DNA of 51,725 nt, filler included, from Jimgerdemannia flammicorona (GCA_003990765.1; 2 parts of 2 records of this genome joined end to end with filler, not necessarily neighbours in it); one strand, 5' to 3'. Shown: positions 16,840 to 50,215, counted from the whole stretch's first letter. Numbers and translations: made by a program. Notes: generated by a model from the letters alone, not told the origin.

Positions 16840-17490
16840 TAGGTACTACTTCAGTGAGACCTTTTGATTAATATAGAGCAGTTAAGTAATAGGTATCACT
16901 CTCAGCTTCTTTTGATGATATATGAGGTTGGGTTCCAGTTATTGGGAGGAGTTGGGGGGCCCAAGGCTATCTATTTCAGGTATCTTGGCTGCACTCAATT
17001 AGAACTGAGAGCTGACATGACAATGTGATCAAGGCCTGCAGGCTTGAGTAGTGAGATATTGGGGGTCTTCTCTCACCTTATATATAAGTTCTTTACTTAT
17101 GTATCTCATCTGGGAGAATCAGGTCCTATCTACTATGATGTACTTTGATGAGAGTTTTTTTCTTTATCTGTCATTCTTCTTAGAATAGCAGAGGCTATTC
17201 TATTCAGCTTAGGCATAACCTTATATATATATTAGGGTCTCAAGTATGCACTTCCAGTTATTGATATATGACTGGGTTTCCTCTGATAGTAAGAAGAGTA
17301 TAGTATATAGAATGAGGTATAGGCTACTATAGGCTCTGCTGTATTTAGTATAGTTGAGCTGCTGGATAATAGTTAGTCTAGATTAATAGAGGAGCAGTAC
17401 TTAGTGAGTAGTGGGAGAGAGTTTTGGTCTATATAGTCTAGGTTCTCTTTCAATAAAAATCTATAGGACTCTGAATCTGTAAAATAAAAA
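16840..17490. mobile_element. Degenerate, hypermutated repeat fragment of unknown family
   Basis: CpG-depleted, TpA-rich, no ORF. Abuts the truncated LTR of the old gypsy element. Confidence 0.35.
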
Positions 17491-20400
17491 AAAGATGACT
17501 AATAGAATTTTACAATATTTCAAAAGATTTTATAACTAGCTAAAATAAGATACTTAATACTAAAAAAGATAAAAATATTCTAGTAATATCTTGATACCAA
17601 GAGAAGATTTCTAAATATTCAAAAGATATTAAAATATAGTAGAATATTCAGAAAAAGATAAGAAAAGACTAGAGAAAAGATGTAAAAAAATATTAAAACT
17701 AAAATATGATTATAAAATTATTACATCTCTCTCTTTTTAAGAACTAATATCCTTATTGAGTTTTTAAGTAATATAAGACTAAATATATTTAACTAAAATT
17801 TCTCAAACTTATATTAGTACATTAGTAAGAACTACTCATCCTTATATAGAATAGAAAATCTATTACTAGACTAACTAACTGGAAGAGATTCAAACTTAGC
17901 TAGTAGCTTCATTTTGATAAACTTCTTATTTACTAGATGATCTTCTAGTTCTAAGATCTCAAAGTAAACTTCTGATATATAAAATACTAATTATTACTAT
18001 AGATCATTAATAATCCAAGAAAGTCACTATAGAGATTAAGTAATATATTTTATCTCAAAGTCTTGAACTAAATCTTGAAAGTTTTTAAGGTTAATCAGTA
18101 GTTCTTATATAGTATTATATTCAGAATAGTCCATCTACTTGACCAGATATTTAGGATAACAGTAGTGAATTCATTTGTTAAGAATTTTCTTAACTTTATA
18201 CTTAATATAGGTTTCAATAATTACAGAGGTAGATAGCTTGAGAATTTAACTAAGATAGAGTGGTAACTAGTTCCAGATCTTAAGATGTAATATATAAAAG
18301 ATTAGGTATACTCTTATAGTTTTAGGTAGTTTGAGATAATAGAAGAATATAGAGACTTATTCAGTAATCTTAAAGAGTCTAATATACTTGAGTTGGAATT
18401 TGTTCAATAGGTAGTTAATTTGAGATTATATCTTGGGGTTCTTAGTAAACAGTTGGACTTGATTATTAATAGTATAGATAATATTACAGTATTTCTTATC
18501 AGTATACTTGGCTTGATGCTGTTGGGTCTTCTGGAGGTTTATAGTAGCAATCTTAAGTAGTTTGTTCATTTTATCTATAAAATTCTTAGTAGTAGAGACT
18601 TATATTTAACTGCTTTTCTTGAAAGAAACTAGACTTGCAGGAGTCTTGAAATCTTGACTATAGAGTAGCCAAAAAGAAAAAAGACCAATAGATAATTAGA
18701 TGGTATTATTATATATAAATTCTGTATAAGTTAAGTAATAGTCTCAATTATCTTACTTATAAGAAATATAGTTTCTAAGTATTTATTCTAAAGTTCTGTT
18801 TATGACTCAGTTTGTCTATCAGTTTGCAGATAAAAGATAGTAAACATAGCTAGTTGAGTTTTCAGAGTCTTAAAGAGAGTTTACCAGAAGTAACTAGTGA
18901 ATTTGGGGTCATAGTTACTAATAATTACTTGTAGTAGATCATAGTAATAAAAGATAGACTTGAAGAAGACTCTTGTAATTTCAGGTATAGTAGCATTGAT
19001 AGTGATTGGTTCAGCAACTATAGTTTTGATCAGATAGTCAATAAATATAATAATAGCATTAGTACTAGATTGGATTTATAGTAGCTAAGTTATAAAGTCT
19101 ATTGTAACTTATTTAAATTTCTTAGTTAAAATTAGTAGTAGTTATAGTAAACTAGCTAGTACTTGATTGATAGACTTGTTGTACTGACAGAGATCACAGC
19201 TAGTAATATAATTCTTAATTTTCTTAACTATGCTTGACCAATAGTAGTGATATTGTATATTCTTAACAGTTTTCTCAATTCTAAAGTAACTGACAAGAGG
19301 AGAGTTATAATTTTCTTACAGTATCTTAAAGTATAGATTTATATTATTAAATAGATAGACTTTGTTTTGATAGTAGAGATCAGATTGTTCTCAGTAGTAT
19401 ATATATCCTTGAGCTTATTTGAGAAGACTTTAGTAGTAATAGTATCTTCTTTATAAGCTTATCTGATTTGATTTAGAAATTCTGATACTAAGATAACTTA
19501 TATAATTACAATAAGGTCTAGATATCTAGATAAGATATCTGGTACTATAAGTTTCTTACCAGGCTTATAGATAATCATCAGATTAAAGGTTTGAAGCTTT
19601 AAACTCTACTTGGCTTATAGATATAATAGAGTAGATTGAGTATTGATATACTTGAGTGATTGATAATCAGTAATAACATCAAACTCAATACCTTCTAGAT
19701 ATCATTACTAGTAGTTTAGTATATATATTATTACTAGTAGCTCTTTCTTGTGAGTGACTAGCTTTTGTTTAGCTAGGGTCAACTTGTAGAACTTAAAGAT
19801 AATAGAGTGGTATTCTTTACCATCTTATAATAGAACTGCTTAAATGGTAAAATTTAATACATTAGTAGTAATGGTAAATTTCAGACTTGAATCTGTATTA
19901 TATAAGACTAGAGTATAAGTTAGATAGTTTTTAAGTTCTTAGAAGACTTATTGACAAAAGAGATCTCAGATATAGAGTATATAGTAATCAGAGTTAGAGG
20001 TCTTTCTTATGAAATTAGTCAGTAGCTCAGTAATACCAGAGAAGTTTCTGATAAAGCAATAGTAGTAGCCAACTAGACTAAGAAAAGATCAGAGTTCTGT
20101 GAAGTTTAATAGAATAGACTATTCTTGAATTATCTCTATCTTATATAGATCTACTTGAATTTCTTATATAGAGATAATGTGATCAAAATATTTAACTTAT
20201 TCTTTGAAGAATTCACATTTTTTAAGCTTTATATAAAACTTGTATTTTTATAAAATCTTCAGAACTACTCAGATATACTTGAGATACTCTTCTTTAGTTA
20301 TACTAAAGATCAGAATATCATTAAGATATACCAACAAAAAGATGAATAGTTGGTCCTTAAATATCTTATTTATAAGAGTCTGGAATATAGTAGATATATT

Positions 20401-21420
20401 GGTAAAACCAAATACTAGAACTAGAAATTTATAGAGTTTAAAGGGAGTTATAAATACAGTCTTAATAATATCTTCTGGCTTAATTCAGATTTAGTAGTAA
20501 TCTGACATAAGGTTCAGCTTAGTGAAGTATGTAGCATTTTTGAGAATATCAAAAATTTGATCAATTAAGAGTAGCAGATATTAGTTCTTATCTATAAGCT
20601 TGTTAAATACTCAGTAGTCTATATATTATATAAGATACTATCTTTTTTCTTAACAAATAAGACTGGTGAGCTATAGGAGAATTTGCTTGATTGAATAGCT
20701 CCTCATATAAGTAATTATTCTAATTTCTTCTTAACTACTTCAATTTTGAGAGATGACATATAGTATATGTATATATTTTTTAGAAGATATAGCTCCTGAG
20801 ATCAGTTTAATTTTATGATCAACTTCTTATACAGAGAGTAGACTAGGTAGTTTGTCTGGAAAGATATCCTTAAATTCTTTAAGCAATAACTTAATACTTT
20901 TATTAATTGATAGCTTTTTGTCTTGCTTCTTGAGATAAACTATTGTAATAAAAGTATATACTGTTTTCTTGAGTATTTTCTTATACTGTATTGCTGATAG
21001 TATTGCAATCTGAGTTTTGTTTATAGGCTTGTCTGTCTTGATAGTAATATTGACTCCTTCTTAAAGTAGAGTAACTTTATTCTTATATTAATTAATATTC
21101 AGATTATATTTCATAAGCCAGAGTTTTCCTAAGATCAAATTATGATCTTCTAGTAATACAACCTTGAAGTCTACTTATTCTTAATATTTCTGGATCTTGA
21201 TGAGTAGTTTGGCAGCAATTAACTCAATAGAATACAGTATACCATCTATAGTAACTATATTGTTATTCTTGAGTATAGGCTTGGTAAGAATCTTGAGGTT
21301 TTTGATAAGATTCTGATTGATGAAGTTTTCTATAACTCTACTATCTATAAGTACTTGAACTTTCTTTCCTTTAATGAGATCTTTGAAAATGAGTATAACT
21401 TGAGCTCAGTTTTTAGTAAG

Positions 21421-23429
21421 TGTAAGCATACAACCTCCAAGCTACCAAAATCACACATGACCTCTGAACAAATCTGGAAATCACCTGTTTGATCACAAAG
21501 CTGAGTCAATATAAAGTTACAGAACACAAAATTCACACAAATGGAATCTTACCAATCAGGACCAAATACATATATACTGAGTACCAAGATATGTCAAATC
21601 AGAGAACTAAAACAAAACAACAACTACAACTTTCAAACACACAAACATGACCACTGAGATCTACACCTGTATCTGCACTGACATTTAGAATGCTATTGTC
21701 AACCAAGCCACACCCCCTCTATCCCTCATGAATATCCATAGCCTAGCACTCCTCTACTTCATGGAAGCCTAATGGAATGCTCTGAATATGCTTAGCGAGG
21801 CCCACCGAATTGGACAAATTTCAAGCTACTACTAGATTAGCCGCCTTCTAGAAGATATGATCGAACACTACCATAATACAAACATTACCCAGATGTCTCA
21901 ACACCAGAAGCTCATTGCCTACAAACATCGAGAACTCTTTTACAAGTATAGTACCATTATTCCCCGCCTTCAAGTTATTACCAGTAAAATGGTTGCTACC
22001 CTGTCCTATGACCAAATCGATGACATGATACAAGAACTCAACCACAAGTACCTTAAGTATGTCAAAACTACAGACAGAACCTTCCCACACCCCAATGATC
22101 ATATCCTGCAAATGCCCCAAGTTGGATACGCCATGAAGGACATCTATGATATAATCCACTTTGATGAAGATGAAGCAGAAGACAATGATCCCTCTGATAC
22201 TGATATGACCCTAAGCCAAGGATCCCTGTCAACACTAATTATACCACCAACCTTGCCAATGAACTTACAACAGTTCATAACCACATATGAGACTTATTGG
22301 AACAATGACCACTGGCACGAATACCAATCCACGTTCACTCCCAATTACTTCAACTATAATGAAGAGACTGGAGAACACAACCTATACCTCCAGACAACCC
22401 TTGAGATTGAACCAACTACTCCACCATCCAAGTATGAGTAATATGAACTACAGCTACTAGCTTACTACAACCCCATGACTCATAGTGCTATAACCTACAG
22501 AAGTATGCAGACAGCGAATCTAATGAAAGTGAAGATAATGTATCTCTCCTTCACCCACCAACATCTTACCCAGCATACAAAATTAATGATACCATCTTGT
22601 GGGATGGAGATGAAGTCCTAATGTATTATTACCTCAGCGAATAAGGAGAAGTAATCTGCGAACCACTCTTCCTAGATGACTACTTTATCAGAGATGATAT
22701 AATTGATGGTAATGTCATCAAGAACTACCCAGAAAGTGCCTAAACTATAAATAGCCTAGCAGTCATAGTATAGTTAGATTAGCCTTATATGATATGACTG
22801 TGAACTGACTCAGCAGTCAGATGATCTCTTGATATATCAGATCATACTTATACTATGTAACTGTATTCTGACTCAGCAAAGCACTTAGTGCTATATCCAT
22901 ATCTAGTATAGTTCAGATAGCCCCTCACTAGTATAAATGCCCCCTTCCCCAGACCTTAGAATCTCAGATTTGAATACTTGAACAATCCGAACACAACTCC
23001 TGAGCACTTCCCCACAATATCCCTTCACACAACTGCTCCTAGTATAGCAATATCATAAATAGTGAATAAACCTATTTAATAATCCACAAACCACTCTTAA
23101 GTAAATTTATTCCTTGTTAGATCCCACTCCTAACCCCATCATGAAATTTCCTAATTGGGTATTGTCTGCAGCAATATGTCAATTCAACTAAGCTGGTCTT
23201 AGTTTCTTGAACTTCCTGAAATATGGAAAATTCTAAACATCTAGAACTAGTCCGAAAAAAGGACTTTGGTTGAGACATCAATCTGAACTTGAAATCAATA
23301 AGTGTAGAGGATGTACTCTATATAAAATTGATCTTGACCATAAGAAAACAGTCTTCCAGAATATCTAGAACTTCCAGAAAACCCTTCCAGAACTATGTAA
23401 TAGTTACCTTAAAAAGCAACCCTCTTATA
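21421..23429 (+). mobile_element. Solo LTR (2009 bp) of the long-LTR family
   Basis: TGTAAG...CTTATA (terminal CA mutated to TA), with 5-bp TSD GTAAG at 21416-21420 and 23430-23434. Colinear with the reverse complement of 41170-43243. Confidence 0.95.
21647..22743 (+). pseudogene. LTR-encoded ORF (solo-LTR copy), disrupted
   Basis: MTTEIY...YPESA*. Several C-to-T/G-to-A stops and a 1-nt deletion near 22502. Confidence 0.8.
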
Positions 23430-25813
23430 GTAAGACTTACTGCTTAATTAGTACTACCAAAATATTTTTAGTCTTACTTAGTTTAACTAGCTTTTTTTAG
23501 AATCATTTGTATGACTCAGTCTCCTTCCTTAACTGTATAGTCTTGATCTTTCTGATTAATAAGTAAGACTTAAACTTGTTCTCAATAGTCTAAATCAATA
23601 ATACTAGTACTAATATCCAAATGATATTTGATACTAAGTTCTGATTATAGTGTAATTTTAGTATAATATTCTTCAGAATATTAGATTACAATTCTAGTAG
23701 ATATCAGAGTTCAGTCTTTAGCTAGAATAGTAACTTACTTAACAGAGTATAGGTTAAAATCAATGACTCTTTCTAATTGACATTGAGGAATCTGGGCCTT
23801 TAGATGAAGCTTCTTGATCTTGGGTTCAGATTGACTAATAGTAGGATTGATAGATACATATATCTTTGGACAATACAATAATTGGTCTTGATAGTTTACT
23901 GGTCTTCTTAGGATATTTATTTGTAATGTATCCTATTTAACAACAGAAGAAATAAGCTCTAGATTTCTTTAAACAATTCTTTTCTTTTAGAATAAGCTTA
24001 ATATTCTTCTTATTTATAGTATCTAAGTCTATTGGTACTGAGCTAACTGCTTTGGGTTAGTTCTTGTGATAGTTCTCAAAATAGTTCTTCTTGTGATATT
24101 TTGGTTTAAAGTAGTTGCTAAAGATGATAACATTAAATCTATTAGTAATTCTCATAGCTTTATTGAAGGTCTATGGCTTCTCTAACTCAATCTTAACTTA
24201 TGTATTTTCTTTCAGATCTTAAATATAGTGATCTATCTTTTTATCTTTAGCAATTACTAGTAGTTTAAGTAGAATTAATAGAAATTATACATTATAACTT
24301 TATATAGACTTGAGTTACTTGATGTTTACTAACTTATCTCAAACTAGCTTAATAGTATTAGCAGACTTGAACTGCTAGTAAAGGACCTCCTTGAAGGATT
24401 TCTAATCTTGGATTCTTGTGTTTAAATAAGAAGTAGTGGTTATAATATAATTATACTATCAAATAGCTATATTTCCTCAGAAGAGTATAATAGCAAATTA
24501 GACTTATATATCTTCTTTTATTCTTATAAGTTTGAAGTATTGGTCCAACTAAAAGGTCTATATATCTATAGTCAGTTCTCTTCAATAACTATTAAAGATA
24601 TCTGACTTGAGTAGCTTAAAGCTAACTAGTATGATAGTAGAATATAATATAGTTATAGTTCTTGTTTTCTGATATTCTAGTTATACTTGAAGTTATTGAA
24701 TTTGATGAGCCATAGTGGTAATTATATTCTCTAGATTGACTTATAGTTCTATATTATCTGTTTCTTCTATAGCAGAGAGATCTAGATAGTAGGCTGATTC
24801 TCCATAGCTCATTTGGACTTATATAATCAGTTGTGACTAGTTTTCAAATTCATATAAGGTTTTTTAATAAGGCAAGATATAATAACACTACTGCTACTAA
24901 GTGTAATAGTTCTAGTTTCTTTAAGAGAAAGTACTAAGTTTTGAAAATTCTAATGAGTCTAAAGTAATTTAAAGAGATACTTATAGGTTTAAGTATTCTT
25001 AAAGAAATTTTAGAAAAAAATATTCTAAGCTTTATTTAAATAGAAAATAAGGATATTTATACAGAATTTGAAAGAAAGATCTAAAAGGATTTTAGAAAAA
25101 AAGAGAAAAGTCAAGAAATAGGTTCTCAGTAAAAATGACTAATAGAATTCTATAATATTCCAAAAGGTTCTATGACTAGCTAAAATAAGATACTTAATAT
25201 CTAGAAAAGACAAAAATGTTCTAATGATGTCTTAGTGTCAAAAGAAGATTTCTAAATATTCAAAAGGTACTAGAATATAATAGAATATTTAGAAAAAAAC
25301 AAAAAAAGACTAAAGAAAAGATATAAAAAGTATTAAGACTAAAATATGACTGTGAAATTATTATATTAACAGATTTTGCTATAAAGCTATAGATCTTAAA
25401 AAAAGAGAACAATATGAAGTAAATTTAGTTATACTATGAGATTTAAATATAGTAGTGAAAAGGCAATCTATATTTACTATCAGTTGCTCTAAAAAGGCTA
25501 CTATATATATATAGCTATAAGGTCTGTAAATTCTGAAATCTAAAGAATCACTATAAGTTATTACCAGAATTCTCTCTCATCATTATCATTGCCATTACTA
25601 TTGCTATTACTATCACTACTTTAGCTCTTAATAAGTAGTTTATATACTATCTATATAAGAAAAAATTTAATATTATTAGTAGAGAGTATTTTTTTATCTC
25701 AAATATTCTCTTTTTTAATAATTATTAATAAATAAAACAAGTAGACTAATATATAATTAAGAACTACTATTTATTTATTTATAATATAATAGTGCAGTAA
25801 GATAGAAAAAAAA

Positions 25814-25913
25814 NNNNNNNNNNNNNNNNNNNNNNNNNNNNNNNNNNNNNNNNNNNNTTAATTAATTAANNNNNNNNNNNNNNNNNNNNNNNNNNNNNNN
25901 NNNNNNNNNNNNN
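25814..25913. other. Assembly gap with artificial linker
   Basis: N-run, TTAATTAATTAA (25858-25869, stops in all frames), N-run; 100 nt in total. Confidence 0.95.
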
Positions 25914-25949
25914 AAAAAAAAACACACTATCACGCCGTAGCCATTAACA

Positions 25950-28514
25950 TTACTCCTTCACTTCTCCTTCCTCTCCTTTTTCAACACTATCCTTCACTTC
26001 TCCTTCCTCTCCTTTTTCAACACTATCCTTCACTTCTCCTTCCTCTCCTTTTTCAACACTATCCTTCACTTCTCCTTCCTCTCCTTTTTCAACACTATCC
26101 TTCACTTCTCCCTCCTCCCCTTTCTCAACGCCATTGCTATCATCCACATCCACCTCCATCGGCCTGATTTTGCCATTATCATGGGCCTTGTCTTGCTCCG
26201 CCGTAACCTCCTTCCGCTCATTGGCCCCATCTCTACCCTTGCCCCTTCTCTCCCTGCTCCGACTCCTTTCGTCCCTTCCCTTTTCCTTCCTTTCATCGCT
26301 CCGACTCGCCTCTTTCCTCTTCCTATCCTCCCTATCGCCCTCCCTTCCCTTCCTATCCTCCCTATCGCCTTCCCTCCCCTTCCTATCCTCCCTATCGCCC
26401 TCCCTGCCCTTCCTTTCTGCACTTCTGCTCCTCCGCCTCCTCTTCACCGAGTCATCATCCTCATCCCGCCTCCTTGTCTCCCGATCGCGATCGTAATCAT
26501 CGTCATTGCGTCTGCGCCGATCCCTATCCTTATCTCCGTCCCTATACCTCTCGCGCTCTCTCTCCTTCTCCTTCATTCTTTCATAGCTTTCAAACTCGTC
26601 CTCAAACCTCCTCGACCCACCAGGCCTCGGCGGCGTCAACTCCCATCTTCTCCTTCCGCCATCGTCCCTCTCGCGAGACCGGTCCTTCTCCCTTTCCCTC
26701 TCCCGTTCTTCCTCATACCTCCTCCCGCCGCGCCTGTCGCGTTCGTCGTAGTCGTCGTACCGCCTACCCCCGCTCCCACCTCCACCGCGCTTCTCGCGAT
26801 CGTCGTGGTCATTGTACCGACGCCGATCGCGCTCATCCCTTCGCCGAGACGGCGGCGAGCGGCTCCGGCTGCGACTCCGACTGTAGCGCGCACGCCCGTA
26901 GTCGCGGTCACGGTCACGACCGTCGCCATGGCGGCCCGATGCAGAACGCGCCTGCGAACCTTCGCGGCTGCGACTGCGGCGGTTGTGGTCGTGGTCGGAG
27001 CCGGGGCCACGGGGGTCCAGGTCGTAGGTTGGGGAGCCGCGTCTGGTGTATGGTGAAGGAGGGGAGGAAAGTGAAGATGTGATCCATAAATTAACAAGAT
27101 TCTGCTTTTCAGAGTATTACGCATGTCACAGCCATAACCACATTTTTCCAGTCATTTTTTTTTTTCGTGTTATATATCTTCACCTCATTTTTCCGACACC
27201 TCGTTGTCGCCTACCGAGCTTCCCTTCCTGAACGAACGTGCCAGGTCAAGGCTACCCGACACAACAGGAGGATAGCGCGTGCAACTTGGCAAACGGAACA
27301 TAACGCAGAGCCGCAGGAGTGCATCACGAAATTATAAGCTGAGGTATGGGTGCTTACCTAACAGGCGCCGGAGGCGCCACTGGAGCCGTGTACGTTTGGC
27401 TGTCATAATCTTGCAACTTCAGGCCGATGTCGCGCGCGATGGGGACGGGAATACGCGGGAGCATCGTGCCGAGGAATTTCTGCTCCGTAAGGAGGTCGCG
27501 ACAAAGGCGTCCAATGGTTCTGAAGTAGGTAGAAAACGATGATACGGTGGGGTATACAAGGTAAGCTAAACAGATAGGACACACTAAAATGACATCGGGA
27601 TAATTCTGCGTTTATGTTCTTCGATGCCGGTGGTTTTTTGGTGGTACGTACGTTGTGATGGGACGGACACCTCCGGAGACTTGGATAGGCTCTTCGTCCT
27701 CCAGGTAACCGTCGAACCATTCCCACAGCTTGGCGGGGGCACAGACGAAGCGGAGATAGAGAAAACCGATGCCGCGGATGTATCTATTTCCAATGGAAGA
27801 TGTTCCAATGACATTGAGCGAAGTCAGATATTGCAGAGGGGAAAAGGCAAGAGGGGATAACAGCAAAGAAGCAGCACAACAAGGCAAGATAGGTCCAAAG
27901 CAAGATGCTTACGGCGAGTCAACATGATCAATAAGTCCTTCAACCTGCTTGATAGTTAACTTCAGCGTCCAGAGCTTGTAGAGGAGGCAGAACGCGGTCG
28001 AAGGTGTGGTATTCTTAAGGAAAGGCTCTGTTGCGTTGGATGCAGTTTAAGGCGTACATCAGATCTTGTTGTACAGGCGGGAGGAAGAAGCAGCATTGAA
28101 GTGAGATAAAGGAAAAGTTGGTTTGATTACCTACCGAGGTTGGTCACTGTGGGATGAGGCAAGAGACAAGGGAACATGGTAAGAATGGATGGCAAAGTTC
28201 GAAAGCAGAAGCAAAGCACGGAAAAGTGTAAGCACATTTCATACCGTTGTTATAAATCTCGTCGATCACTTCGTGATACGTTTTCTTATCGCTGTGAGTG
28301 TGCAACGGCAAGTTGAAGGTTAGCATCACAATTGCAACTTGGGTTCAAAAATCAAAGACAAGAGAGGTATGATGAACCTCACAGTTCGTCGAGCGGACAC
28401 GTACTAGAGGGTCTTGAAGTAAGGAGAAGCGAGGATATTCTGGTATACAATTGGATTCATGTTCATTGAGACCTCGTTGCCCCATGTTTCCAACTTGTTG
28501 CTTTGCTTCGACAT
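25950..28514 (-). CDS. PRPF38B: Pre-mRNA splicing factor PRP38B-like with RS/RD-rich C-terminus, multi-exon
   Basis: MSKQSNKLETWGNEVSMNMNPIVYQNILASPYFK; KKTYHEVIDEIY; STAFCLLYKLWTLKLT; YIRGIGFLYLR; MLPRIPVP; long Arg/Ser/Asp tail. Confidence 0.92.
25953..26135 (-). repeat. Coding 36-bp tandem repeat (~5x VEKGEEGEVKDS)
   Basis: Visible in both DNA and translation at the C-terminus of PRP38B. Confidence 0.9.
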
Positions 28515-28965: not shown

Positions 28966-30668
28966 CTAAACGTACCCCTTTACCCCATCTAGCAGCATCC
29001 TGCCCTCGGCACGCATCTGGTCCTCCGTCCAGCGCCCCGCTGTGCCCTCGCCCCTGGCGTTCGAGCCTGCAGGTGGTTCGTCGATCAGCGTGGCCCAGAA
29101 AGAGCGATACTGCTCCACGAGTTGGAGTTCGGTGTGACCATAGGCTTGCTGAGAAGTGGTTGAACGGAATTAAAAACCAGACAGAAATCAGGGTAAGAAA
29201 CCGACACCATTTTCGAATTTTACAAAGCAGATTATCCATCGTCTTCCCCCGCTACACATACCGTCCTAATCCCGTTCGTGACCTGCTTCCTCAGCCTCTC
29301 GAGCATGATCCTTGCCCAATCCTTGAACTGTGGGAACTGCCACAGCGACTGCCTGACAAGCTCCTGGTGCCTGAGTATGAGCTCAAACATCTTGAACGCC
29401 TGCGCGGCGAGGGCCCTGGCGAGCTCAGCGGTGATGAAGGCGTAGAACTGGCGGGAGCAGACAAGGGCGGCGACCCATGCGCGGCGGGCGGCGACGGACT
29501 GGAAGGCAGGCGGTGTCTGGAGGTTAGCGCGGAATCCGTCGTGCAAGGACTCGAGGATGCGAACCTTGGCCGGGAGGACGTGCGGCTGCGCCGTGTCGCG
29601 TAGGATGGTCACCAGAGCCGTGCGTGTGAAGGCCGTGAGGTGTGCGGTGGCGAGGAGGGGCGGCCCCGTGGACGGGGTGGTATTTTGCGCATGACTGAGG
29701 AAGGTGAAGCTAGATTCGAGGCGCTTCAAGAGGCGGAGGCGGCCCGACGTGGTGAGGGGGCGGAGAGCAGGGCGTCGCGATCGGGTGGAGCGGGAGGAGG
29801 GTGGTGGTGGTACTGGGTTCAGGCGGGGGTCCATGTCGTTGAGGAAGCGAGAGATGCTACGGTGGAGGAGGTCTGGGACGTGAACGCCACAGGCGTCAGG
29901 GGCGAGGCTCGAACAGCGTTGCTGGAGAAGGAGGAGAAGGGTCGCGAGATACTCTTGACGGTGAATCGTGATGGGCAGAGTGGCGAAGGTGAACACGAAG
30001 TCGACCGTAATCTTGACACGGTCGCGGATGAAGCGTGACGAGGGTGTGTCACTTCCGCAACCGGCGACGCCTCCGCATACATTGTCGACGATTATTTGAA
30101 GAATTTTTGCGTCAAGCTTTTCTATGAAGGTGACGAGGGCTCCTCTGAGGGATAGGAGGAGTTCGACGGCATCAGCACCTCCCTCAAGGCATCGCATGTT
30201 CAGATCGAAAAGCGAGGACAATGCCTGATAGCACACGTCCCGACACGCGGTCGACACTTGTGACAATCTCCATAGCTCGTGGAAGGAGAGATATTGTGCA
30301 ATGTAAGATAGAACGTCATCGGGAAGCGAGCTAAACTCGCACAGGGCGGCTTTGATACTGACGGTGGTTGGTACCGGCCTAACAATCCCCAGAATACTGA
30401 TGGTGGTTGGTGCCGGCCTAGCGATCCCCAAAATATTGGCGGTGGTGATTGGTGCCGGCCTAGCAATCCCCGAAATACTGACGGTGGTTGGTGCCGGCCT
30501 AGTCCCCAGAGACGAACCCTGCTGTAGGTGGACCTGGAATGGGGTACGGCGTTGGCGCTTTGGAGCGGACGTATGGTTGGCAGGGCTGCTATCCGGTATG
30601 TGTTTGCGTTTCTTTGTGGCTCGAAATTTTGTTGTTATCGCGGGGTTATCTGTGGTACGGTCGGCCAT
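28966..30668 (-). CDS. F-box domain protein (2 exons)
   Basis: F-box FSSLPDDVLSYIAQYLSFHELWRLSQVSTACRDV. Intron GTATGT(29261)..CAG(29149), last exon QAYGHTELQLVEQY...VKGYV*. Confidence 0.8.
30355..30508 (-). repeat. Coding 39-bp tandem repeat (4x ~LGIARPAPTTISI)
   Basis: GTRPAPTTVSIS/GIARPAPITTANIL/GIARPAPTTISIL/GIVRPVPTTVSI immediately before the F-box. Confidence 0.85.
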
Positions 30669-31051
30669 GGTTGCGAAGAAGAAGAGGAGGAGAGACGCCA
30701 TTCCCCCACAAGGAAGAAGAAATGTGCCCAAAGATGGGAAAATGACGTGACGTCACTTTATCAGCCTTTCTTGTGACTGCCTTTCATCATCACATTCGTG
30801 CCCTTCCAACCTGTAACCCAACCCAGACCATTGGTGTAGCCCGTGTTATTTTTTTCCCTATGAGCCAGCGTCCCTGTATTCCGTACTGTACGTCTATCAT
30901 TTCCTTCCTTTTCAGATTATGTAGACAACATCCTTTCCGTATGTGAATAATACCGACCAAACAGTATTTTCAACGGAAATGTATAGAAAGCCAAACCCCA
31001 AACACATCAATTATAAACGTAGTACACGTAAAGTAATAACCATCGTCTCAG

Positions 31052-39960: not shown

Positions 39961-40008
<48 letters not shown>

Positions 40009-41858
40009 TTTAAAAATCGCTTGCTTTCAAGTGGTACTAATATACTAAAAAATGGGAGTAAAATTTTGTTTCTGCTATAAAGGCTATTTATTGGGCCTGG
40101 GATATATCCTTAATTAAGGTTCCTAGAAACAATTATAATGGCGAGCGGGTTTATCAAACTGGAACACCCACATACTCACAAACATGCTGATATCCTTGTC
40201 AAAGAATACCAACAGTGACAACTGCAAATAAACCAGAGTCCGTGTCAAGGTCTCCGCCACTGATGATCACCTGGCTGAGCTCATTGAATGTAATGGCCAA
40301 ATCGACAACATGATATAAGAACTCAACCACAAGTACCTTGAGTACGTCAAAACCACAGACAGAACCTTCCCACACCCCAATGATCATATCCTACAAATGC
40401 CCCAAGTTGGATATACCATGAAGGACATCTATGATATAATCTACTTTGATGAAGATGAAGCAGAAGACAATGATCCCTCTGATGCCGACATGACCTCTAG
40501 CCAAGGATCTCTGCCAATGCTGATCATACTGCCAACCTTGCCAATGAACTTACAACAATTTATAACAGTATACAAGACTTATTGGGACAATGACTACTGG
40601 TATGAATACCAACCCACGTTCACCCCCGATTACTTCAACTACAATGAAGAGACTAGAGAACACAATCTGTACCTCCAGACAACCCTCGAGATTGAACCAA
40701 CCACTCCACCACTTGAGTATGAGTGATATGAACTACAGCCACCAGCTTACTACAACCCCATAACTCATAGTACTGTAACCTATAGAAAATATGCAAATAG
40801 TGAAACTAATGAAAGTGAAGATGATGCACCCCTCCTTCACCCACCAACACCTTATCCAGTATATGAAACTGATGATACCATCTTGTAGGACAGAGATGAA
40901 GTTCCAATATATTATTACCTCAGTGAACAAGGAAAAGTAATCCGTGAACCACTCTTCCTAGATGACTACTTTATCAGAGATAATGCAATCAATGGTGATG
41001 TTATCGAGGACTATTCAGATAGCACCTAAACCTATAAATAGCCTAGCAGTCATAGTATAGTTAGATTACTCTTATACAATGTGACTGTGAACTGACTCAG
41101 CAGTCAGATGATCTCTTGACATGTCAGATCACACTTGTACTATGTGACTGTATTCCAACTTAACAAGATTGTAAGAGGGTTGCTTTTTAGAGTAACCGTT
41201 ACGTAGTTCTGAAAGGGTTTTCTGGATATTCTGGATATTCTGGAAGACTGTTTTCTTATGGTCAAGATCAATTTTGTATAGAGTACATCCTCTATGCTTA
41301 TTGATTTCAAGATCAGGTTGACATCTCAACCAAAGTCCTTTTTTGGACTAGTTCTGGATGTTCAGGATTTTCCATATTTCAGGAAGTTCAAGAAACTAAG
41401 ACCAGCTTAGTTGAATTGGCATATTGCTGCAGACAATATCCAATTAGGAAATTTCATGATGGGGTTAGGAGTAGGACCTAACGGGGAGCAGATTTACTTA
41501 AGAGTGGTTTGTGGGTTATTAAATAGGTTTATTCGCTATTCATGATATTGCTATACTAGGAGTAGTTGTGTGAAGGGATATTGTGGAGAAGTGCTCAGGA
41601 GTTGTGTTTGGATTGTTCAAGTCTGTTCAAGTCTGAGATTCTGAGGTTTGGGGGAGGGGGTATTTATACTAGTGAGGGGCTATCTGGACTATGCTAGATA
41701 TGGATATAGCACTAAGTGCCTTGCTGAGTCAGAATATAGTCACGTAGTACAAGTGTGATCTGATATGTCAAGAGATCATCTGACTGCTGAGTCAGTTCAC
41801 AGTCATGTTGTACAAGGCTAATCTATCTATACTATAACTGCTAGACTATTTATAGGTC

Positions 41859-42956
41859 TTAGGCACTATCTGGGTAGTCTTCGATAACATCACCATCGAT
41901 TGCATCATCTCTGATGAAGTAGTCATCTAGGAAGAGTAGTTCGCAGATTACTTCTCCTTGTTGGCTGAGGTAGTAATACATTAGGACTTCATCTCCATCC
42001 CAAAGGATAGCATCGTCTGTTTCGTATGCTGGATAAGGTGTTGGTGAGTGAAGGATGGGTGTATTGTCTTTGCTTCCATCAGATTCGCTGTCTGCATACC
42101 TTCTATAGGTTACAGTACTATGAGTTGCAGGATTGTAATAAGCTGGTGGCTGTGGTTCATATCGCTCGTACTCAGGTGGTGGAGTGGTTGGTTCAATCTC
42201 GAGAGTTGTCTGGAGGTACAGGTTGTGTTCTCCAGTTTCTTCATTATAGTTGAAGTAGTCAGGGGTGAACGCGGATTGGTATTTATACCAATGGTCATTG
42301 TCCCAATAAGTCTCATATGCAGTTATGAACTGTTGCAAGTTCATTGGCAAGTTTGGTGGAGTGATCAGGGTTGGCAGAGATCCTTGGCTAGAGGTCATGT
42401 TGGCATCAGAGGGATCATTGTCTTCTGCTTCATCTTCATCGAAGTGGATTATATCATAGACGTCCTTTATAGTGTATCCAACTTGAGGTATTTGCAGGAT
42501 ATGGTCCTCAGGGTGCGGGAAGGTTCTGTCTGTAGTCTGGACATATTCGAGGTACTTGTGGTTGAGTTCTTATATCATGTCGTCGATTTGGCCGTAGGAC
42601 AGGGTAGCAACCATTTCGCTGGTAGTAACTCAGAGACAGGGAATAAAGGTGTTGTACTCATAGAAGAGTTCTCAATGTTTGCGGGCGATGAGCTTCTGGT
42701 GTTGAGACATCTGGGTAATGTCTGTATCATGGTGGTGTTTGACCATGTCTTCCAAGAGGCGGCCGATCTGGTAGTAGCTTGATATTTGTCCAATTCGGTG
42801 GGCCTCACTAAGCATGTTCAGGGCATTCCATTGGGCTTCCACGAAGTAGAGGGGTGCCAGGCTATGGATATTCATGAGGGGTAGAGGGGGTGTGGCTTGG
42901 TTGACAATGGCATTCCAAATGTCAGTGCGGATACGGTTGTAGATCTCGGTAGTCAT
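41859..42956 (-). pseudogene. LTR-encoded ~365-aa ORF (3' LTR copy), in-frame stops only
   Basis: ORF-track pieces 42672-43082 and 41859-42398 share one frame. The interrupting stops are CGA-to-TGA and CAA-to-TAA types. Confidence 0.85.
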
Positions 42957-43670
42957 ATTTGTGTGTTTGGAAGTTGTGGTTGTTGTTGTTTTGGTTCTCT
43001 GATTTAACACATCTCGGTGCTTGGTATATATGCATTTGGTCCTAATTGGTAAGATTCTGTTTGTATAGATCTTGTGTTCCATGACTTCGTGTTGACTCAG
43101 CTTTGTGCACTATGACTTCGGTTTGACTCAGCTTTGTGATCAAGCAGGTGGTTTCCAGATTTGTTCAGAGGTCGCGTGTGATTTCAGTGGCTTGTTCAGA
43201 GGGTGACATGTAATTTCGATGGCTTGGAGATTGTGCGCTTACAACTCTCCTCTTCTTAGCTTTCGACATCCTCGTCGGGGCCTTCTAATTTGTTCTAGTG
43301 TTATTATATCATTTGGGAGGTCAAAAGTCTGGTAAGGTCCATTTTTCTCAGAAAGTGGCATACTCGTAGTACAGTTGCCTAACGCATTGGATTCACACAT
43401 TAAAGAGTCGTGTGTTCAATACTGTGCACCAGAAGTGATTTAGACGTCATTCACTGCTGGAGAATTTCCTCTAAGGAATCTTCTTAAATGTTTACACCTT
43501 GTTTCCCACCAGTGGTACAGGGAGAATAGGCTTGCTTTCAGTTTTGCTATTTTTTCCAGAGGGTCGGTATTCTTGTCTTGTTTTGCTGAGTCCTTGACTT
43601 GGTTCGTGATAGTTATAATGTTCGGGAGGATAATATATAGTATGTACAGATAGGTACAGAGCATTTGGTT

Positions 43671-44780
43671 CTAGTTGTTCAAGGAATCATATTCCTGAAC
43701 TAGGTCAGTAGCATTCTGGAGATTGGTCTTGGGTTCCCAGGTTGCATCGTGGATTGGGTAACCTTTCCACTTGACAAGATACTCAGGGTGGTTCTTGTTG
43801 CCATGTTTGTTGAGGATTTGTTCAACTTCATACTCTTCTTGGTCATTAATGATGACAGGTGCAGGTGGTTTAGTAGTCCAGTTTGGAAATAGCTTGTCAT
43901 TATTCTCATTGTATTGCTTGAGATGTTGGACATTAAAGACTGGGTGAATCTTAATGGTGTCTGGTAGTGCCAATTTGTAGGAGGTTGGAGAGACTTGTGC
44001 AATGACTTCAAATGGTCCAATGAACTTGCTGTTCAGCTTTGTGGATGGTCTGTGCTTGAGGTTGTCAACTCGGTATCCTCTGATGTCTAGTAGAACTTTT
44101 TCTCCAATGTCAAAGGTTTCTTCTCAGTGGTGTTGGTTAATATACTGTGACTATTGTTCTTGAGCTTGTGATAAATTCTCAATTGCGATCTGGCTTAGAT
44201 TATGCATTCGGAGTAGGAATTCTTCAACAGCTTCGACTGTGGAGGGTTCTTCAGTGGTTCGGATAAGTGTCAATGGGGTGTTTGGGTTTTGTCCAGTGTT
44301 GGTGAAGAATGGGGTCATTCCAAGAGAGGCTTGCTTGCTATTGTTATAGGCAAACTCAACTGTGGTGAGGTATTCATGCCAATCATCTTGTCTGTAGGAA
44401 ACATAGTTTCTTAGCATTTGTTCCAGAGTTCAGTTCATTCTTTCAGTTTGGCCATCAGTTTCTGGGTGAAAGGCTGTGGACAGTGCAAGTTTTGTTCCAA
44501 GGTGTGCATGGAGGGCTTTCCAAAAGTGGCTGGTGAATTTCGGATCTCAGTCACTAACAATGATCTTAGGGAGACTATGATAGCGGAAGATATTGTCAAA
44601 CAAGAGTGTGGCTATATCTGGTACTATTGCAGTAGTGGTAGTAGGCACAATGTGGGCTTGTTTGCTGAGATAGTCCACAAAGACAACAATTGCATCTTTC
44701 CCGTTCTTGGTTCGGGGTAGCTGTACAATGAAGTCCATGGAGATTTGTTCCCAATTTGCAGATGGTACTGGGATAGGGTG
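43671..44780 (-). pseudogene. Integrase core + GPF motif + chromodomain remnant
   Basis: [92 protein letters not shown]. Confidence 0.93.
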
Positions 44781-46620
44781 GGTTCATGGTTTCTGGGTGT
44801 CCAAGAGGTGGATGTGGAGGGAGCTCGAGATACCTTGTACTTGGGTTCTTCTTTCTTGGTCCAAGTTTTTTCCTTGTTGTTGAATTGTCTTCAGGGCAGA
44901 ATTGGTCCAGCTGTTAGGATTCGCTTGACCATGGTCTTGATTCTTACTAGGCACCATTGTTGGTGATCACAACCAACTGGGCAGCCTTGTTCTTGGATTT
45001 TTCTAGTAAGCCATTCAGGCAGGGCATCGAATAAATGGTCTGCTCTTATATCATTTTGTGCTTCATCATTGGCAATATATCCTAGGCCAACAGTGTTCAG
45101 GAGTGACTCGAGTTTTGTACAGAAGGTTTCAAATTCTTCTTTGCCATGTACATCAAATTTGAGATTGCATAGTTTTACTCAAGATTCAGTGATCATGGTT
45201 TCACTGTGGTATTGGGCAATCATGAGTTGTTTGAGTCCAGGGGCTGTAGGATGGGCTCCGTATCCTGGGGTATTGTTTGCTGCATTCTGGGCAACTACTG
45301 CAGATTAGGTATCCCATGTGAGGGGTTTTTCAGGAAGGGTTCGCCACCATTCTTTGGCAGGTCCTTGGAAGAATGTAACAACTTGGCGGACATAGGCTGT
45401 AGTTATAGCAAAGAGTTGTTCCAGAGTGTGGTCTTGATTGTTTGTCAGAACGCAGTCAGCAACTCGCTCATTGGTCCATTGATTGGCTTCAAAGTTAGTG
45501 TCAACTACACTAATGAAGCTTTGGACTTCTTGTGCAGTATCATTGAAGGTAGGTAGGCTCAGATTTTTGGTAGGTCGGGTCTGTTCAGCTAAGGCAGTAA
45601 TGGTTGCTACCATTATAGCTACTTGGGCTGTGAGGTCTAGAATCTGTTGGTTCACCATGTTGTTTACTGGAGGTGGTTGGACTGCTGGTAGTGGTGTTAC
45701 TGATACTACTTGAGGTATTGGTGCAGAATGTGATGGAGTTCTTTGGGTCTGTGTAAGTTACTGGAGTAGTAGTTGTGGATCTGGAGTGAGAGCTTGATAG
45801 ATAACTGTTTGTTGCTGTATAGGTGTATTCTATTCTGATAGAGGTACATCTTCTTTGGTGGTGTATCTGGGATCAAATTCAGTAAGATACTCTTCCTCTT
45901 CTTCGGTTTGGTCCCCGTGTAATTGGGTTTGCTCAGCGTCAAAGTAGACAGAATCAGTTGTATATCTGATTTCAGACGGACTTAATTCAAAGTCGAGTTC
46001 AGGTTCAGTATTGGTTTCGGATTCAGGTAGGGCTGTAGCAGGGCCTGCTTCAGGTTCGGGGTCAGGTAGTTGATGAAGGGTTTCTCTTGCTTCTTCCTTA
46101 AGGATATGGCAGGCCTTGCTGTTCTGGAATCGGTAGTATAAGGCAGTCTTGGTCCTAGTGCGGTGAAAGTCGGTAGAGTTGAGCCACTTAACTACAGAGG
46201 CTTGGGCTTCGTGAGAAACTATGGCTAGAAAGACTGCTGCTGGTTGTCCTAAGTCACTCGGATTTGTAGAGCTGACAAAACTCTTATTGAGAAGAGTAAA
46301 GAAGGCTTCAATAAGACCTTCTTCGTCTTGACTTGCTGGGTGTAGTGCAAGGAGTTTGGTGAATAGGATTTCGCCTATTTGCTGGTTTAACTTGAGTACT
46401 TCTTTCTTTGAATGAAGTTTATCTCACTTGTTGCAGGTGTGGAGGTCAAATTGTCCTTGTATTTCAGGTTCAATTCTCTCCAGATTGTCAGATGGTTCAG
46501 AATAAATTCCAGTTCAGAGGTTGGGCTTTATACCAACTTGTAGGAATTCACAGAGAGGTTTGTAGCAGGGTGAGGAAGCATCTTGAAGTGGAATTGGATT
46601 ATAAACTGCTGCTACCAAGT
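44781..46620 (-). pseudogene. Long gag-like ORF with scattered transition-type stops
   Basis: One frame from the PBS region (LVAAVYNPIP..QIGEILFTKLL..) through LPTFND..VQSFI and FFQGPAKEWW (retrotransposon gag-like) to ..TPRNHE. Confidence 0.75.
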
Positions 46621-47309
46621 TGTAAGAGGGTTGCTTTTTAGGGTAACCATTACGTAGTTCTGAAAGGGTTTTCTAGATATTCTGGATATTCTGGAAGACC
46701 GTTTTCTTATGGTCAAGATCAATTTCGTATAGAGTACATCCTCTACACTTATTGATTTCAAGATCGGGTTGACATCTCAACCAAAGTCCTTTTTTGGACT
46801 AGTTCTGGATGTTCAGGATTTTCTGTATTTCAGGAAGTTCAAGAAACTAAGACCAGCTTAGTTGAATCGGTATATCGCTGCAGACAATACCCAATTAGGA
46901 AATTTCGTGATGGGGTTAGGAGTAGGACCTAATGGGGAGCGGATTTACTTAAGAGTGGTTTGTGGGTTATTAAATAGGTTTATTCGCTATTCATGATATT
47001 GCTATACTAGGAATAGTTGTGTAAAGGGATATTGTGGGGAAGTGCTCAGGAGTTGTGTTCGGATTGTTCGAGTCTGTTCAAGTCTGAGATTCTGAGGTCT
47101 GGGGGAGGGAGTATTTATACTAGTGAGGGGCTATCTGGACTATACTAGATATGGATGTAGCACTAAGTGCCTTGCTGAGTCGGAATATAGTCACGTAGTA
47201 CAAGTGTGATCTGATATGTCAAGAGATCGTCTGACTGCTGAGTCAGTTCACAGTCATGTTGTACAAGGCTAATCTATCTATACTATGACTGCTAGACTAT
47301 TTATAGGTC

Positions 47310-48407
47310 TTAGGCACTATCTGGGTAGTCTTTGATGACATCACCATCGATTGTATTATCTCTGATGAAGTAGTCATCTAGGAAGAGTGGTTCGTGAATT
47401 ACTTCTCCTTGTTGGCTGAGGTAGTAATACATTGAGACTTCATCTCTATCCCAAAGGATAGTATCGTCTGTTTCGTATGCTGGATAAGGTGTTGGTAGGC
47501 GAAGGATGGGTGTATTGTCTTTGCTTCCATCGGATTCACTATCTGCGTACCTTCTATAGGTTACAGCACTATGAGTTGCAGGATTGTAGTAAGCTGGCAG
47601 CTGTGGTTCATGTCACTCGTACTCAGGTGGTGGAGTGGTTGGTTCAATCTCGAGAGTTGTCTGGAGGTACAGGTTGTGTTCTCCGGTTTCTTCATTGTAG
47701 TTGAAGTAGTCAGGGGTGAACGCAGGTTAGTATTCATGCCAATGGTCATTGTCCCAATAAGTCTCATATGCAGTTATGAACTATTGCAAGTTCATCGGCA
47801 AGTTTGGTAGAGTGATCAGAGTTGGCAGAGATCCTTGGCTAGAGGTCATGTTGGCATCAGAGAGATCATTGTCTTCTGCTTTATCTTCATCGAAGTGGAT
47901 TATATCATAGACGTCCTTCATGGTATATCCAACTTGAGGCATTTGCAGGATATAGTCCTCAGGGTGCGGGAAGGTTCTGTCTATAGTCTGGACATATTCG
48001 AGGTACTTGTGGTTGAGTTCTTGTATTATGTCATCGATTTGGCTATAGAACAGGGTAGCAACCATTTTGCTGGTAGTGACTCGGAGGCAGGAAATAAAGG
48101 TGTTGTACTCATAGAAGAGTTCTCAATGTTTGTGGGTGATGAGCTTCTGGTGTTGAGACATCTGGGTAATGTCTGTATCATGGTGGTGTTTGACCATGTC
48201 TTCTAAGAGGCGGTCAATCTGGTAGTAGCTTGATATTTGTCCAATTTGGTGGGCCTTGCTAAGTATATTCAGGGCATTCCATCGGGCTTCCACAAAGTAG
48301 AGGGGTGCCAGGCTATGGATATTCATGAGGGGTAGAGGGGGTGTGGCTCGGTTGACAATGGCATTCCAAATGTCAGCGCGAATACAGTTGTAGATCTCGG
48401 TAGTCAT
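47310..48407 (-). pseudogene. LTR-encoded ~365-aa ORF (5' LTR copy)
   Basis: Offset 5451 from the 3' LTR copy. ORF-track pieces 48123-48461 and 47781-48065 are in the same frame. Confidence 0.85.
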
Positions 48408-49927
48408 ATTTGTGTGTTTGGAAGTTATGGTTGTTGTTGTTTTGGTTCTCTGATTTAACATGTCTCGGTGTTTGGTATATATGTATTTGGTCCTGATTGG
48501 TAAGATTCCGTTTGTGTAGATCTTGTGTTCTGTGACTTCGTGTTGACTCAGCTTTGTGTACTGTGACTTCGGTTTGACTCAGCTTTGTGATCAAGCAGGT
48601 GGTTTCCAGATTTGTTCAGAGGTCGTGTGTGATTTCAGTGGCTTGTTCAGAGGGTGATGTGTAATTTCGGTGGCTTGGAGGTTGTACGCTTACAAAGATA
48701 CTTAGTGCTATATCTATATCTAACATAGTTCAGATAACCCCTTACTAGTATAAATACCCCCTCCCCCAGACCTCAGAATCTCAGACTCAAACATACAAGA
48801 ATAATCCAAACACAACTCCTGAGCATTTCCCCATGATATCCTTTTACACAACTACTCCTAGTATAGCAATATCATGAATAGCAAATAAACCTATTTAATA
48901 ACCCACAAACTACTCTTAAGTAAATCTGCTCCCCATTAGGTCCCACTCCTAATCCTGTCATGAAATTTCCCAATTGGGTATTATCTGCAGCAATATGCTA
49001 ATTCAACTAAGCTGGTCTTAGTTTCTTAAACTTCCTAAAATATAGAAAATCCTGAATATCTAGAACTAGTCCAAAAAGGAACTTTGGTTGAGATGTCAAC
49101 TCAATCTTAAAATCAATAAGTATAGAGGATGTACTTCATATGAAATTGATCTTGACCATAAGAAAACAGTCTTCCAGAACATTCAGAACCTCCAGAAAAC
49201 CCTTTCAGAACTATATAATAGTTATCCTAAAAAGCAACTCTCTTACATTGAAAGCCATTTCTTCAATGTAAAACCCAACTCTGCGGATCTCAGAAAATGT
49301 GGAAAAATATTGTTCTGGGCTCTCTTTTCCTTGGGATGATGTACCCTAGATATTCTATTCTAAAAGAACTTGCATTTGCTCATGTTAGCATATAGCTTGT
49401 ATTCTTAGAGTAGAGTCAGAATATTACAGAGGTAGATATAGGGAAGATTTATAGGTTTGATATAGATAAGAATATCATTAATATATATATATATATTAAA
49501 GAATGGTTTAAAGATATTTTGTATTTATTAGACTTTAAAAGATAGCTAGTATATTGATAAGTTTAAAAATATTACTCAGAATTAATAGAATTTAAATTAA
49601 ATATAGAATATAGTCTTCTTAATATTCTTTCTTTAATGAGAATTTAATAATATCTACTTGAGATAACTTCATAGTTTTAAAATTTTTATATATATAGTAG
49701 TTTATTTTCTTTAAAAGAATATATCTATTTTTGATAGCAATCTTATTAAAAACTCAATAGTCTATAATTAAAAGTCTATTATTAAGACATTTAAACTATT
49801 TTAATTTAAGATTTATTTACTTATAATATTAAGATTATTTATTTAAGTTTACTATACTATATTGATTAAATAAGTAATTAATTTATATCTTTATTATTAT
49901 TAAGATACTTTAATAACTAGTTTTAAG

Positions 49928-50215
49928 TAGTGCTTCCAATAAATTAAATTGAATCAAAGGTCCAATTCAATTGAATTTGAATCAAATCAAAGGCTAATTT
50001 AATTTGAAATTCAATTTGAATCCTATTTTTCAAAATTTAATAACTTAACAAATATATATCTAAATTTAATGATCTTTAGCTTGTTAGATTCCTCTATATA
50101 AGGTGAATCTAATAAGTTAAAGATTGTTAAATTTGGACATATTTTTATTGAGTTATTACATTTCTAAAAATAGGGTTTGAATTAGACCCTTGATTTAATT
50201 CATTTAGGAGTACTA
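49928..50215. mobile_element. Fold-back MITE, hAT-like
   Basis: Ends TAGTGCTTCC...GGAGTACTA. Long imperfect inverted arms meet at ~50090-50105. 8-bp TSD GTTTTAAG at 49920-49927 and 50216-50223. Confidence 0.8.

Follow-up and report, generated by a model that had tools for sequence, protein, structure and literature searches.

A 365-codon frame inside the long terminal repeats of a Jimgerdemannia flammicorona chromovirus-type element, a probable accessory gene

Introduction

Can a retrotransposon keep a protein gene inside its long terminal repeats (LTRs)? LTRs are treated as non-coding control regions and are masked in annotation, and a gene inside an LTR changes how elements are counted. The question is raised by a chromovirus-type LTR element in a stretch of DNA from Jimgerdemannia flammicorona (GCA_003990765.1), in which each 2074-bp LTR holds the same frame of 365 codons. 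The whole stretch that was analyzed, here called the window, is 51,725 nucleotides long and joins two parts of two records of this genome end to end with filler. A first-pass annotation of the window had read the frame as a complete accessory gene lying in U3. Our analysis indicates that the frame is very probably a real accessory gene borne by the element. The fuller statement, that a real chromovirus gene lies wholly in the 2074-bp LTR, was once under purifying selection, and is represented in the window by relics decayed through transitions, appears only slightly less probable.

Since the frame lies wholly inside the LTR, reverse transcription would double the gene at every transposition, and the gene would remain in solo LTRs. 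Being present twice per element and surviving LTR-LTR recombination, such a gene can exceed gag-pol in copy number. It would represent a retrovirus-like accessory gene outside the vertebrate retroviruses and would bear on the origin of "complex" retroelements.

Results and Discussion

The frame was open in the ancestral LTR

The frame is present in all four LTR copies in the window, has the same sense as the element, occupies LTR positions 288-1385 of 2074, and lies where the first-pass annotation had put it (Table 1). Copies A and B are the two LTRs of the element itself, copy C is a solo LTR, and copy D is a truncated LTR that the element interrupts. Across the copies there are 11 stop sites, eight of which are private to one copy; the remaining stops are shared at codon 95 (A and B), codon 129 (A and D), and codon 265 (B, C, and D). 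At each site another copy retains CAA, CAG, CGA, or TGG, one transition away. Because this holds for all 11 sites, the ancestral frame was open throughout, which agrees with the earlier view that the stops are of the C-to-T or G-to-A type, mostly differ between copies, and leave a consensus that looks intact. The sense frame has 4-5 stops in copies A and B, terminal stop included; over the same stretch, four other frames of the full-length copies have 14-33 each. The openness of the sense frame is far from chance. Antisense to copy A, a stop-free frame of 244 codons runs along 42048-42782 (+) and is probably a by-product of sense codon usage.

The LTRs of copies A and B differ at 118 aligned sites, all of them transitions, with zero transversions. 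In all copies, singleton changes consist mainly of C>T and G>A, occur on both strands, and are commonest at CpG and then at CpA/TpG, and the decay after insertion resembles repeat-induced point mutation or deamination of 5-methylcytosine. Some sites were hit recurrently, as the codon 265 stop is found in three independent copies and the codon 129 stop in two.

Table 1. Features of the window, with coordinates counted from its first nucleotide
Feature	Coordinates	Strand	Remarks
Frame, copy A	41859-42956	-	365 codons plus stop; internal stops at codons 95 (TGA), 109 (TGA), 129 (TAA)
Frame, copy B	47310-48407	-	4 internal stops: codons 95, 209, 227, 265
Frame, copy C	21647-22743	+	5 stops and one 1-bp deletion
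Frame, copy D, partial	40295-41029	+	codons 122-365; 3 stops
Chromovirus-type LTR element	41170-48694	-	LTRs, target-site duplication, primer-binding site, polypurine tract, integrase-chromodomain
5' LTR, copy B	46621-48694	-	2074 bp; TGTAAG..CTTACA ends
3' LTR, copy A	41170-43243	-	2074 bp; TGTAAG..CTTACA ends
Target-site duplication AAGAT	41165-41169 and 48695-48699		5 bp, both flanks of element
Primer-binding-site-like TGGTAGCAGCAG	46606-46617	-	3 nt inside 5' LTR
Polypurine tract AAGAAGAGGAGAG	43244-43258	-	abuts 3' LTR
Solo LTR, copy C	21421-23429	+	duplication GTAAG (5 bp) at 21416-21420 and 23430-23434
LTR copy D, left half	40295-41169	+	5'-truncated; interrupted by nested insertion
LTR copy D, right half	48695-49247	+	resumes from 41169 across duplicated AAGAT
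Promoter-like stretch upstream of frame	43025-43207	-	tandem duplications and TATATA; motifs only
TATAAATA boxes and AATAAA	41528-41854	-	putative promoter and poly(A) signal of the first-pass annotation; motifs only
Integrase core, SH3_Tf2-1, chromodomain	43671-44780	-	4 internal stops plus terminal stop
Leader and gag-like frame	44781-46605	-	~640 codons; 8 stops
Host-type open reading frame, condensin Cnd1_N	3282-3800	-	
Host-type open reading frame, translation-factor GTPase	11689-12525	+	GTP_EFTU plus EF-G_D2; nearest Atlas clusters of IF-2/EF-G type
Host-type open reading frame, F-box protein	29232-30752	-	

Relatives, indels, and substitutions suggest selection on a protein

A search of 5.8 billion cluster representatives returned one relative within the length range, a HMMER profile search of 1.84 billion representatives gave three matches (P0002, P0003, and P0004), and a search for shorter proteins with a single-protein query gave one. 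P0002, a protein of 247 amino acids (aa), aligns to frame residues 115-364, with 159 of 250 positions identical (64%) and 204 of 250 positive. The alignment contains two 2-residue gaps, each of whole codons, and no stop, and the C terminus of P0002 coincides with the aligned end of the frame, one residue beyond the local alignment (..EYPDSI versus ..DYPDSA). P0003 (128 aa, 91% identical) begins at the same MTTEI, has Arg at both TGA stops of copy A, and ends where copy A has TAA. P0004, a protein of 436 aa made up of six repeats of ~60 residues, matches weakly (E 6e-5, in six stretches) to residues 112-148 of the LTR protein, in the stretch TLSYGQIDDMIQELNHKY; it is doubtful as a relative and may reflect chance or a shared short helical motif. 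Locus scans of metagenome contigs and of viral contigs added no further relatives of the frame.

For a null model, the stretch of copy A that matches P0002 was mutated randomly to 64% protein identity, in 2000 runs at each of three transition/transversion ratios. The runs acquired a mean of 4.1-5.2 stops and stayed stop-free in only 0.4-1.5% of cases. Conservative replacements, which make up 45 of the 87 observed, accounted for 28-30% in the simulations, and no run reached the observed value. Taken together, a protein divergence of 36%, an open frame, and conservative replacements imply a probable history of long-term selection.

Indels, which the first-pass annotation had proposed to compare in phase between the frame and the non-coding LTR, favor a gene by their counts: the window has one indel in the 1098-nt frame against seven in ~976 nt of non-coding LTR. 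The family also occurs outside the window, in contigs from four sequencing runs of four studies (at least 85% likeness to the window; three of the runs are labeled soil metagenome). Contigs from all four runs cover the frame, and some bridge its start and stop into the flanking LTR. None of the 17 sequencing-run entries listed is on record as RNA. Of the 28 indels in these contigs, 12 are listed, and the frame contains none of these. All 12 are in non-coding stretches: past the stop codon, including 1 nt beyond it, 29 nt ahead of the ATG, and in the interval separating the chromodomain from the LTR. Substitutions were also sorted by codon position. Transversions are not produced by the decay process, and the transversion columns of the frame number 10 at third, five at first, and three at second positions; two of these, one at a second and one at a third position, lie at the ragged edge of copy D.

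An indel just upstream of the MTTEI codons had been cited in favor of that ATG as the start. Such indels are present, one of 2 bp in copy C and a 1-bp insertion at 42985 in most outside contigs. The ATG has A at -3, and P0003 is called from the same Met. An in-frame ATG lying 42 codons upstream in copy A was rejected as the start, as it is absent in B and C and is cut off by indels.

The carrier is an internally deleted chromovirus

Self-comparison of the window (blastn) revealed a direct repeat of 2.08 kb, 41161-43244 versus 46613-48695, with 94.2% identity, together with further LTR pieces at 21494-23427 (opposite orientation), 40295-41167, and 48700-49247. The exact LTR limits were taken from the alignment of the copies and inspection of the junctions. 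They agree with those first annotated: TG..CA ends, two independent 5-bp target-site duplications (AAGAT and GTAAG), a primer-binding site (PBS), and a polypurine tract (PPT) were all found. The PBS lies 3 nt inward from the LTR at 46621-48694 and the PPT abuts the opposite LTR, which makes 46621-48694 the 5' LTR of an element read on the minus strand. Outside contigs of runs X1 and X4 span the junction between the PBS and the 5' LTR.

Judged against the solo LTR, the two halves of copy D rejoin exactly over one AAGAT. The element inserted into this 5'-truncated LTR copy of its own family. One outside contig (run X2) connects an LTR terminus with position 41540 of another LTR, and this family may often insert into its sister copies, which would fit chromodomain targeting.

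The internal region between the LTRs measures 3368 bp, and its gag-like frame runs directly into the integrase core. Pfam matches were obtained for rve (E 2.7e-6), SH3_Tf2-1 (E 3e-18), and Chromo (E 9.6e-17); the sole family match of the gag-like frame, Retrotrans_gag, is non-significant (E 0.26). These findings support the repeats as true LTRs of a chromodomain-bearing Ty3/gypsy element. The family search found no protease, reverse transcriptase, or RNase H in the internal region. The copy at 41170-48694 is therefore internally deleted and non-autonomous, a state that the first-pass annotation overlooked, and its Ty3/gypsy family assignment is made on the integrase and chromodomain only. At 44781, the start of the integrase frame, outside contigs of three runs part from the window; the deletion joint lies near 44781-44840, and beyond it these contigs are unlike the window. 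Their divergence at 44781 would fit fuller copies of the element elsewhere. The sense strand of the element is strongly A/C-rich, with a plus-strand GC skew of +0.25 and AT skew of -0.22 over 42001-48000.

The frame probably lies in U3

Putative transcription signals flank the frame on both sides. Upstream of it are two tandem duplications of ~34 and 31 bp, each present in two copies in A and B and in one copy in C. A TATATA follows at LTR position 214 and precedes the ATG by 74 nt. Downstream, copy A has two TATAAATA boxes, one at LTR position 1390, only 5 nt past the stop, and one at 1576; they sit 320 and 135 nt ahead of an AATAAA at 1711. The TATAAA at 22932 and AATAAA at 23065 reported earlier for the solo LTR are both present.

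On these motifs, the frame probably lies in U3. With either TATAAATA as the promoter, the frame would be in U3, R would span ~130-320 nt, and U5 would be ~340 nt. In the likeliest arrangement, the upstream stretch would drive a ~1.5-kb transcript that ends at the LTR's own poly(A) signal; alternatively, splicing in the retroviral manner could yield an RNA for the protein out of the 3' end of the genomic transcript. The downstream TATA and AATAAA motifs consist of A and T only, so C>T decay could not have erased them and their persistence counts for nothing.

The strongest competitor to U3, in our judgment unlikely, places the frame in R. Transcription would then start from the TATATA at 214, the frame would be the first cistron, an "ORF0" before gag like that of rice Retrosat2, and it would recur at the 3' end inside an R extending over ~1.5 kb. 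The TATATA would suit such a role, standing 74 nt before the ATG and after two duplications that vary in copy number as enhancer repeats do; the survival of the downstream TATAAATA boxes, which lack C and G, is uninformative here as well; and plant elements with long LTRs can have extra open reading frames (ORFs) ahead of gag (PMC3485330, retrieved in part, as were all papers cited here). Against it, the poly(A) signal at 1711 would act in the 5' LTR too and would end the genomic RNA 1.5 kb from its cap, and two canonical TATAAATA boxes 135 and 320 nt before an AATAAA make up the usual LTR layout. An R of ~1.5 kb would, to our knowledge, also far exceed any known R.

Accessory gene or passenger

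Several observations weigh against the reading of the frame as an accessory gene in U3. All four window copies of the frame are broken, and no copy that is both complete and intact turned up. The stop at codon 95 is common to both LTRs of the element, so the donor copy may already have been broken, in which case the gene was not needed in cis; alternatively, this codon may be a CGA hotspot that was struck twice, and codon 265 shows that such parallel hits occur. Only two true relatives were found among 1.84 billion representatives, and both P0002 and P0003 are fragmentary, coming from short contigs (998 and 1180 bp), so that P0002 may lie outside an LTR. Copies A and C differ by transversions at 14 of 1097 sites in the frame and at 3 of 910 outside it, so at the DNA level the frame shows no better conservation than the rest of the LTR. 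Aligned codon for codon, the antisense frame too is fairly open, with 6-7 stops in A and B (24 in C). AlphaFold2 gives the whole protein a predicted local distance difference test (pLDDT) score of 33, with nothing confident beyond the N terminus; the ESM Atlas's own model scores 0.39, and poor structure predictions also fit a non-protein. Finally, every promoter and poly(A) assignment is based on short motifs made up of A and T only.

Could the frame instead be a passenger, that is, a host gene or part of one that was transduced into the LTR, has no role for the element, and was conserved only while young? Transduction of host sequence by retroelements is documented (PMC7264820), the protein has no retroelement-like domain, and P0002 could be the host source. 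The codon 95 stop in both LTRs would also suit a passenger. We consider this origin improbable, however, on four grounds. No cellular or longer homologue of the frame was found among the 1.84 billion representatives, which yielded two fragments and one doubtful repeat protein, in databases that may cover the host's relatives poorly. Transduced genes are present in one or few copies (PMC7264820), whereas the frame is found in all four window LTRs and in all four outside runs. The composition of the frame (G 0.17, third-position G 0.13) matches that of the element's integrase (0.16 and 0.12) and not that of four host ORFs tested (G 0.23-0.30, third-position G 0.24-0.33); the frame is of the element's G-poor type, unlike host genes. 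Lastly, an open frame and conservative replacements at a protein divergence of 36% again imply probable long-term selection.

Capture of a fragment of a host gene or another transposon had been named in the first-pass annotation as an outcome that would refute its claim. No host or transposon source was found for the frame, and it has no similarity to the element's own gag/pol or to any other sequence in the window. The earlier accessory-gene reading stands in part: the 64% relative, the simulation, and the composition favor an element-borne protein gene, and the roles proposed for its product gained no support.

By far the least probable explanation is that the frame is not a gene and was kept long by a G-poor, A/C-rich LTR composition together with nucleotide constraint on U3: the sense strand is indeed low in G and T, which makes stops rarer, and the 6-7 antisense stops of A and B and the poor fold predictions would be in keeping with it, but the ancestral sense frame has no stop where four other frames of the full-length copies have 14-33, the 64%-identical relative is open with in-phase gaps and conservative replacements that no simulation run matched, and transversions favor third codon positions.

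A predicted helical and acidic orphan protein

The protein has an isoelectric point of 4.3 and contains 8.6% Tyr, 9.1% Asp, and 7.5% Pro; its last 225 residues include 45 D+E versus 8 K+R, along with 22 Tyr and 22 Pro. It was not recognized in the first-pass annotation, and we likewise obtained no Pfam family at E<=1 with either P0002 or the X-containing read-through of the frame; a sequence profile search of the PDB also gave no relative (best E 0.22). For the N-terminal 128 aa, AlphaFold2 predicts five helices over residues 3-127 with a pLDDT of ~60. The Foldseek check that had been proposed did not identify this predicted fold, as it returned 0 PDB matches at E<=0.001 and only generic and designed helical bundles. 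In the ESM Atlas, P0002 had no feature match, and all structure rows had a template modeling (TM) score of <=0.30. Pfam, PDB sequence, and fold searches found no sequence or fold kinship to Sag, Nef, or Bel proteins.

These predictions describe an orphan protein with a helical N-terminal part of ~130 residues followed by an acidic, Tyr/Pro-rich tail of ~225 residues that is predicted to be disordered. The best-conserved block comprises residues 229-250, FTPDYFNYNEETGEHNLYLQTT in copy A, at which P0002 is identical at 21 of 22 positions. Copy A also has PPxY-like motifs (PPPEY and PPAY), but these are not retained in P0002, and the idea of a late domain binding Nedd4 was rejected.

The active lineage probably maintained the frame under purifying selection. 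How such a protein might serve the element can be sketched tentatively. Each LTR would form a self-contained RNA polymerase II (pol II) unit, with tandem repeats and TATATA in the first 290 bp, the frame, and its own AATAAA, and the protein would act in trans for the element. Its acidic-aromatic tail would fit a transcriptional activator or an adaptor that recruits host factors, similar to retroviral accessory proteins. We regard this combination of a self-contained LTR unit with an activator as a possibility on the doubtful side. Somewhat less likely still is a stronger version, in which every 5', 3', and solo LTR would be a complete pol II gene and an independent source of a trans-acting factor for the LTRs of its own family. 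The helical part would then be a binding domain and the acidic Tyr/Pro-rich tail an effector, and the protein would switch on or protect family LTRs. If true, the element would count as a "complex" retrotransposon of a fungal type, with a Tas/Tax-like feedback loop and a gene dosage that rises with the number of solo LTRs.

Comparison with known LTR-borne and additional genes

We classify the frame among the additional ORFs of LTR retrotransposons, with a retrovirus-like position within the LTR. In our literature search, the term "LTR ORF" led essentially only to papers on mouse mammary tumor virus (MMTV) (e.g., PMC2118998). MMTV sag is the nearest known case in layout: like the frame described here, it is a complete ORF inside the LTR, lies upstream of the TATA and poly(A) motifs of the LTR, and is copied to both ends of the provirus. 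MMTV, however, is a vertebrate retrovirus with env, whereas the protein here has no family match and nothing retroviral, is acidic, and is largely predicted to be disordered, and its placement in U3 is putative. Sag is a membrane glycoprotein.

Additional ORFs (aORFs) have been described in several LTR retrotransposons, including ORF0 of rice Retrosat2/RIRE3/RIRE8, maize Grande, Silene Retand, and Botrytis Boty; they are orphans, occur in most copies, and have unknown functions according to the review by Vicient and Casacuberta (PMC7264820). As with the frame here, they are present in most copies of their families, and no homologue was found outside the elements. Retrosat2 has LTRs of >3.2 kb and an orphan ORF0 upstream of gag-pol, which the retrieved part of PMC3485330 does not describe as lying inside the LTR. 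In general, aORFs belong to the internal region, upstream of gag or between pol and the 3' LTR (PMC7264820), whereas our frame is wholly inside the LTR, so that each element would have it twice and solo LTRs would retain it.

Cassandra, Helenus, and Ajax are non-autonomous plant LTR elements with small-RNA genes in their LTRs (10.1101/2023.07.14.548913, PMC10886601). They share with the LTR here a gene-like unit with its own promoter in each LTR, the promoter here being putative, but their units are short and pol III-derived (5S rRNA and other small RNAs), in contrast to a protein-coding frame of ~1.1 kb. Fungal and plant chromoviruses resemble our element in rve, SH3_Tf2-1, and Chromo, the 5-bp duplication, TG..CA ends, and nesting in their own family. 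The element differs from them in its 2074-bp LTRs with a frame and, in the copy at hand, in its missing protease, reverse transcriptase, and RNase H; a neighboring Ty3/gypsy element in the window has repeats of ~234 bp.

A limited full-text literature search found no description of an LTR retrotransposon with a protein gene inside its LTR, and in the matches to "LTR ORF" that looked fungal, "LTR" meant the whole element. The family described here is present in contigs of all four outside runs and is nearly absent from protein databases, which suggests that such genes are systematically missed.

Surroundings in the window

The host-type ORFs of Table 1 mark the window as eukaryotic. Solo LTR C sits in a second, unrelated, and heavily decayed Ty3/gypsy element at 17490-25363 (minus strand; GC 0.24-0.36), whose ~234-bp terminal repeats (17490-17723 and 25131-25363) are 85% alike. 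Read through with X, this second element matches Ty3_capsid, dUTPase (E 5e-12), RVP_2, RVT_1, RNase H, and Integrase_H2C2; fungal gypsy elements with a dUTPase are known. GC content is 0.24-0.39 over the repeat-rich parts of the window (16000-26000, 40000-42000, and 48000-50000) versus 0.44-0.55 where genes lie. At 25946-26129 there is a tandem array with a ~36-nt period, and low-complexity runs at 5663-5703, 9806-9862, and 39963-40005 match one another perfectly at many one-base offsets.

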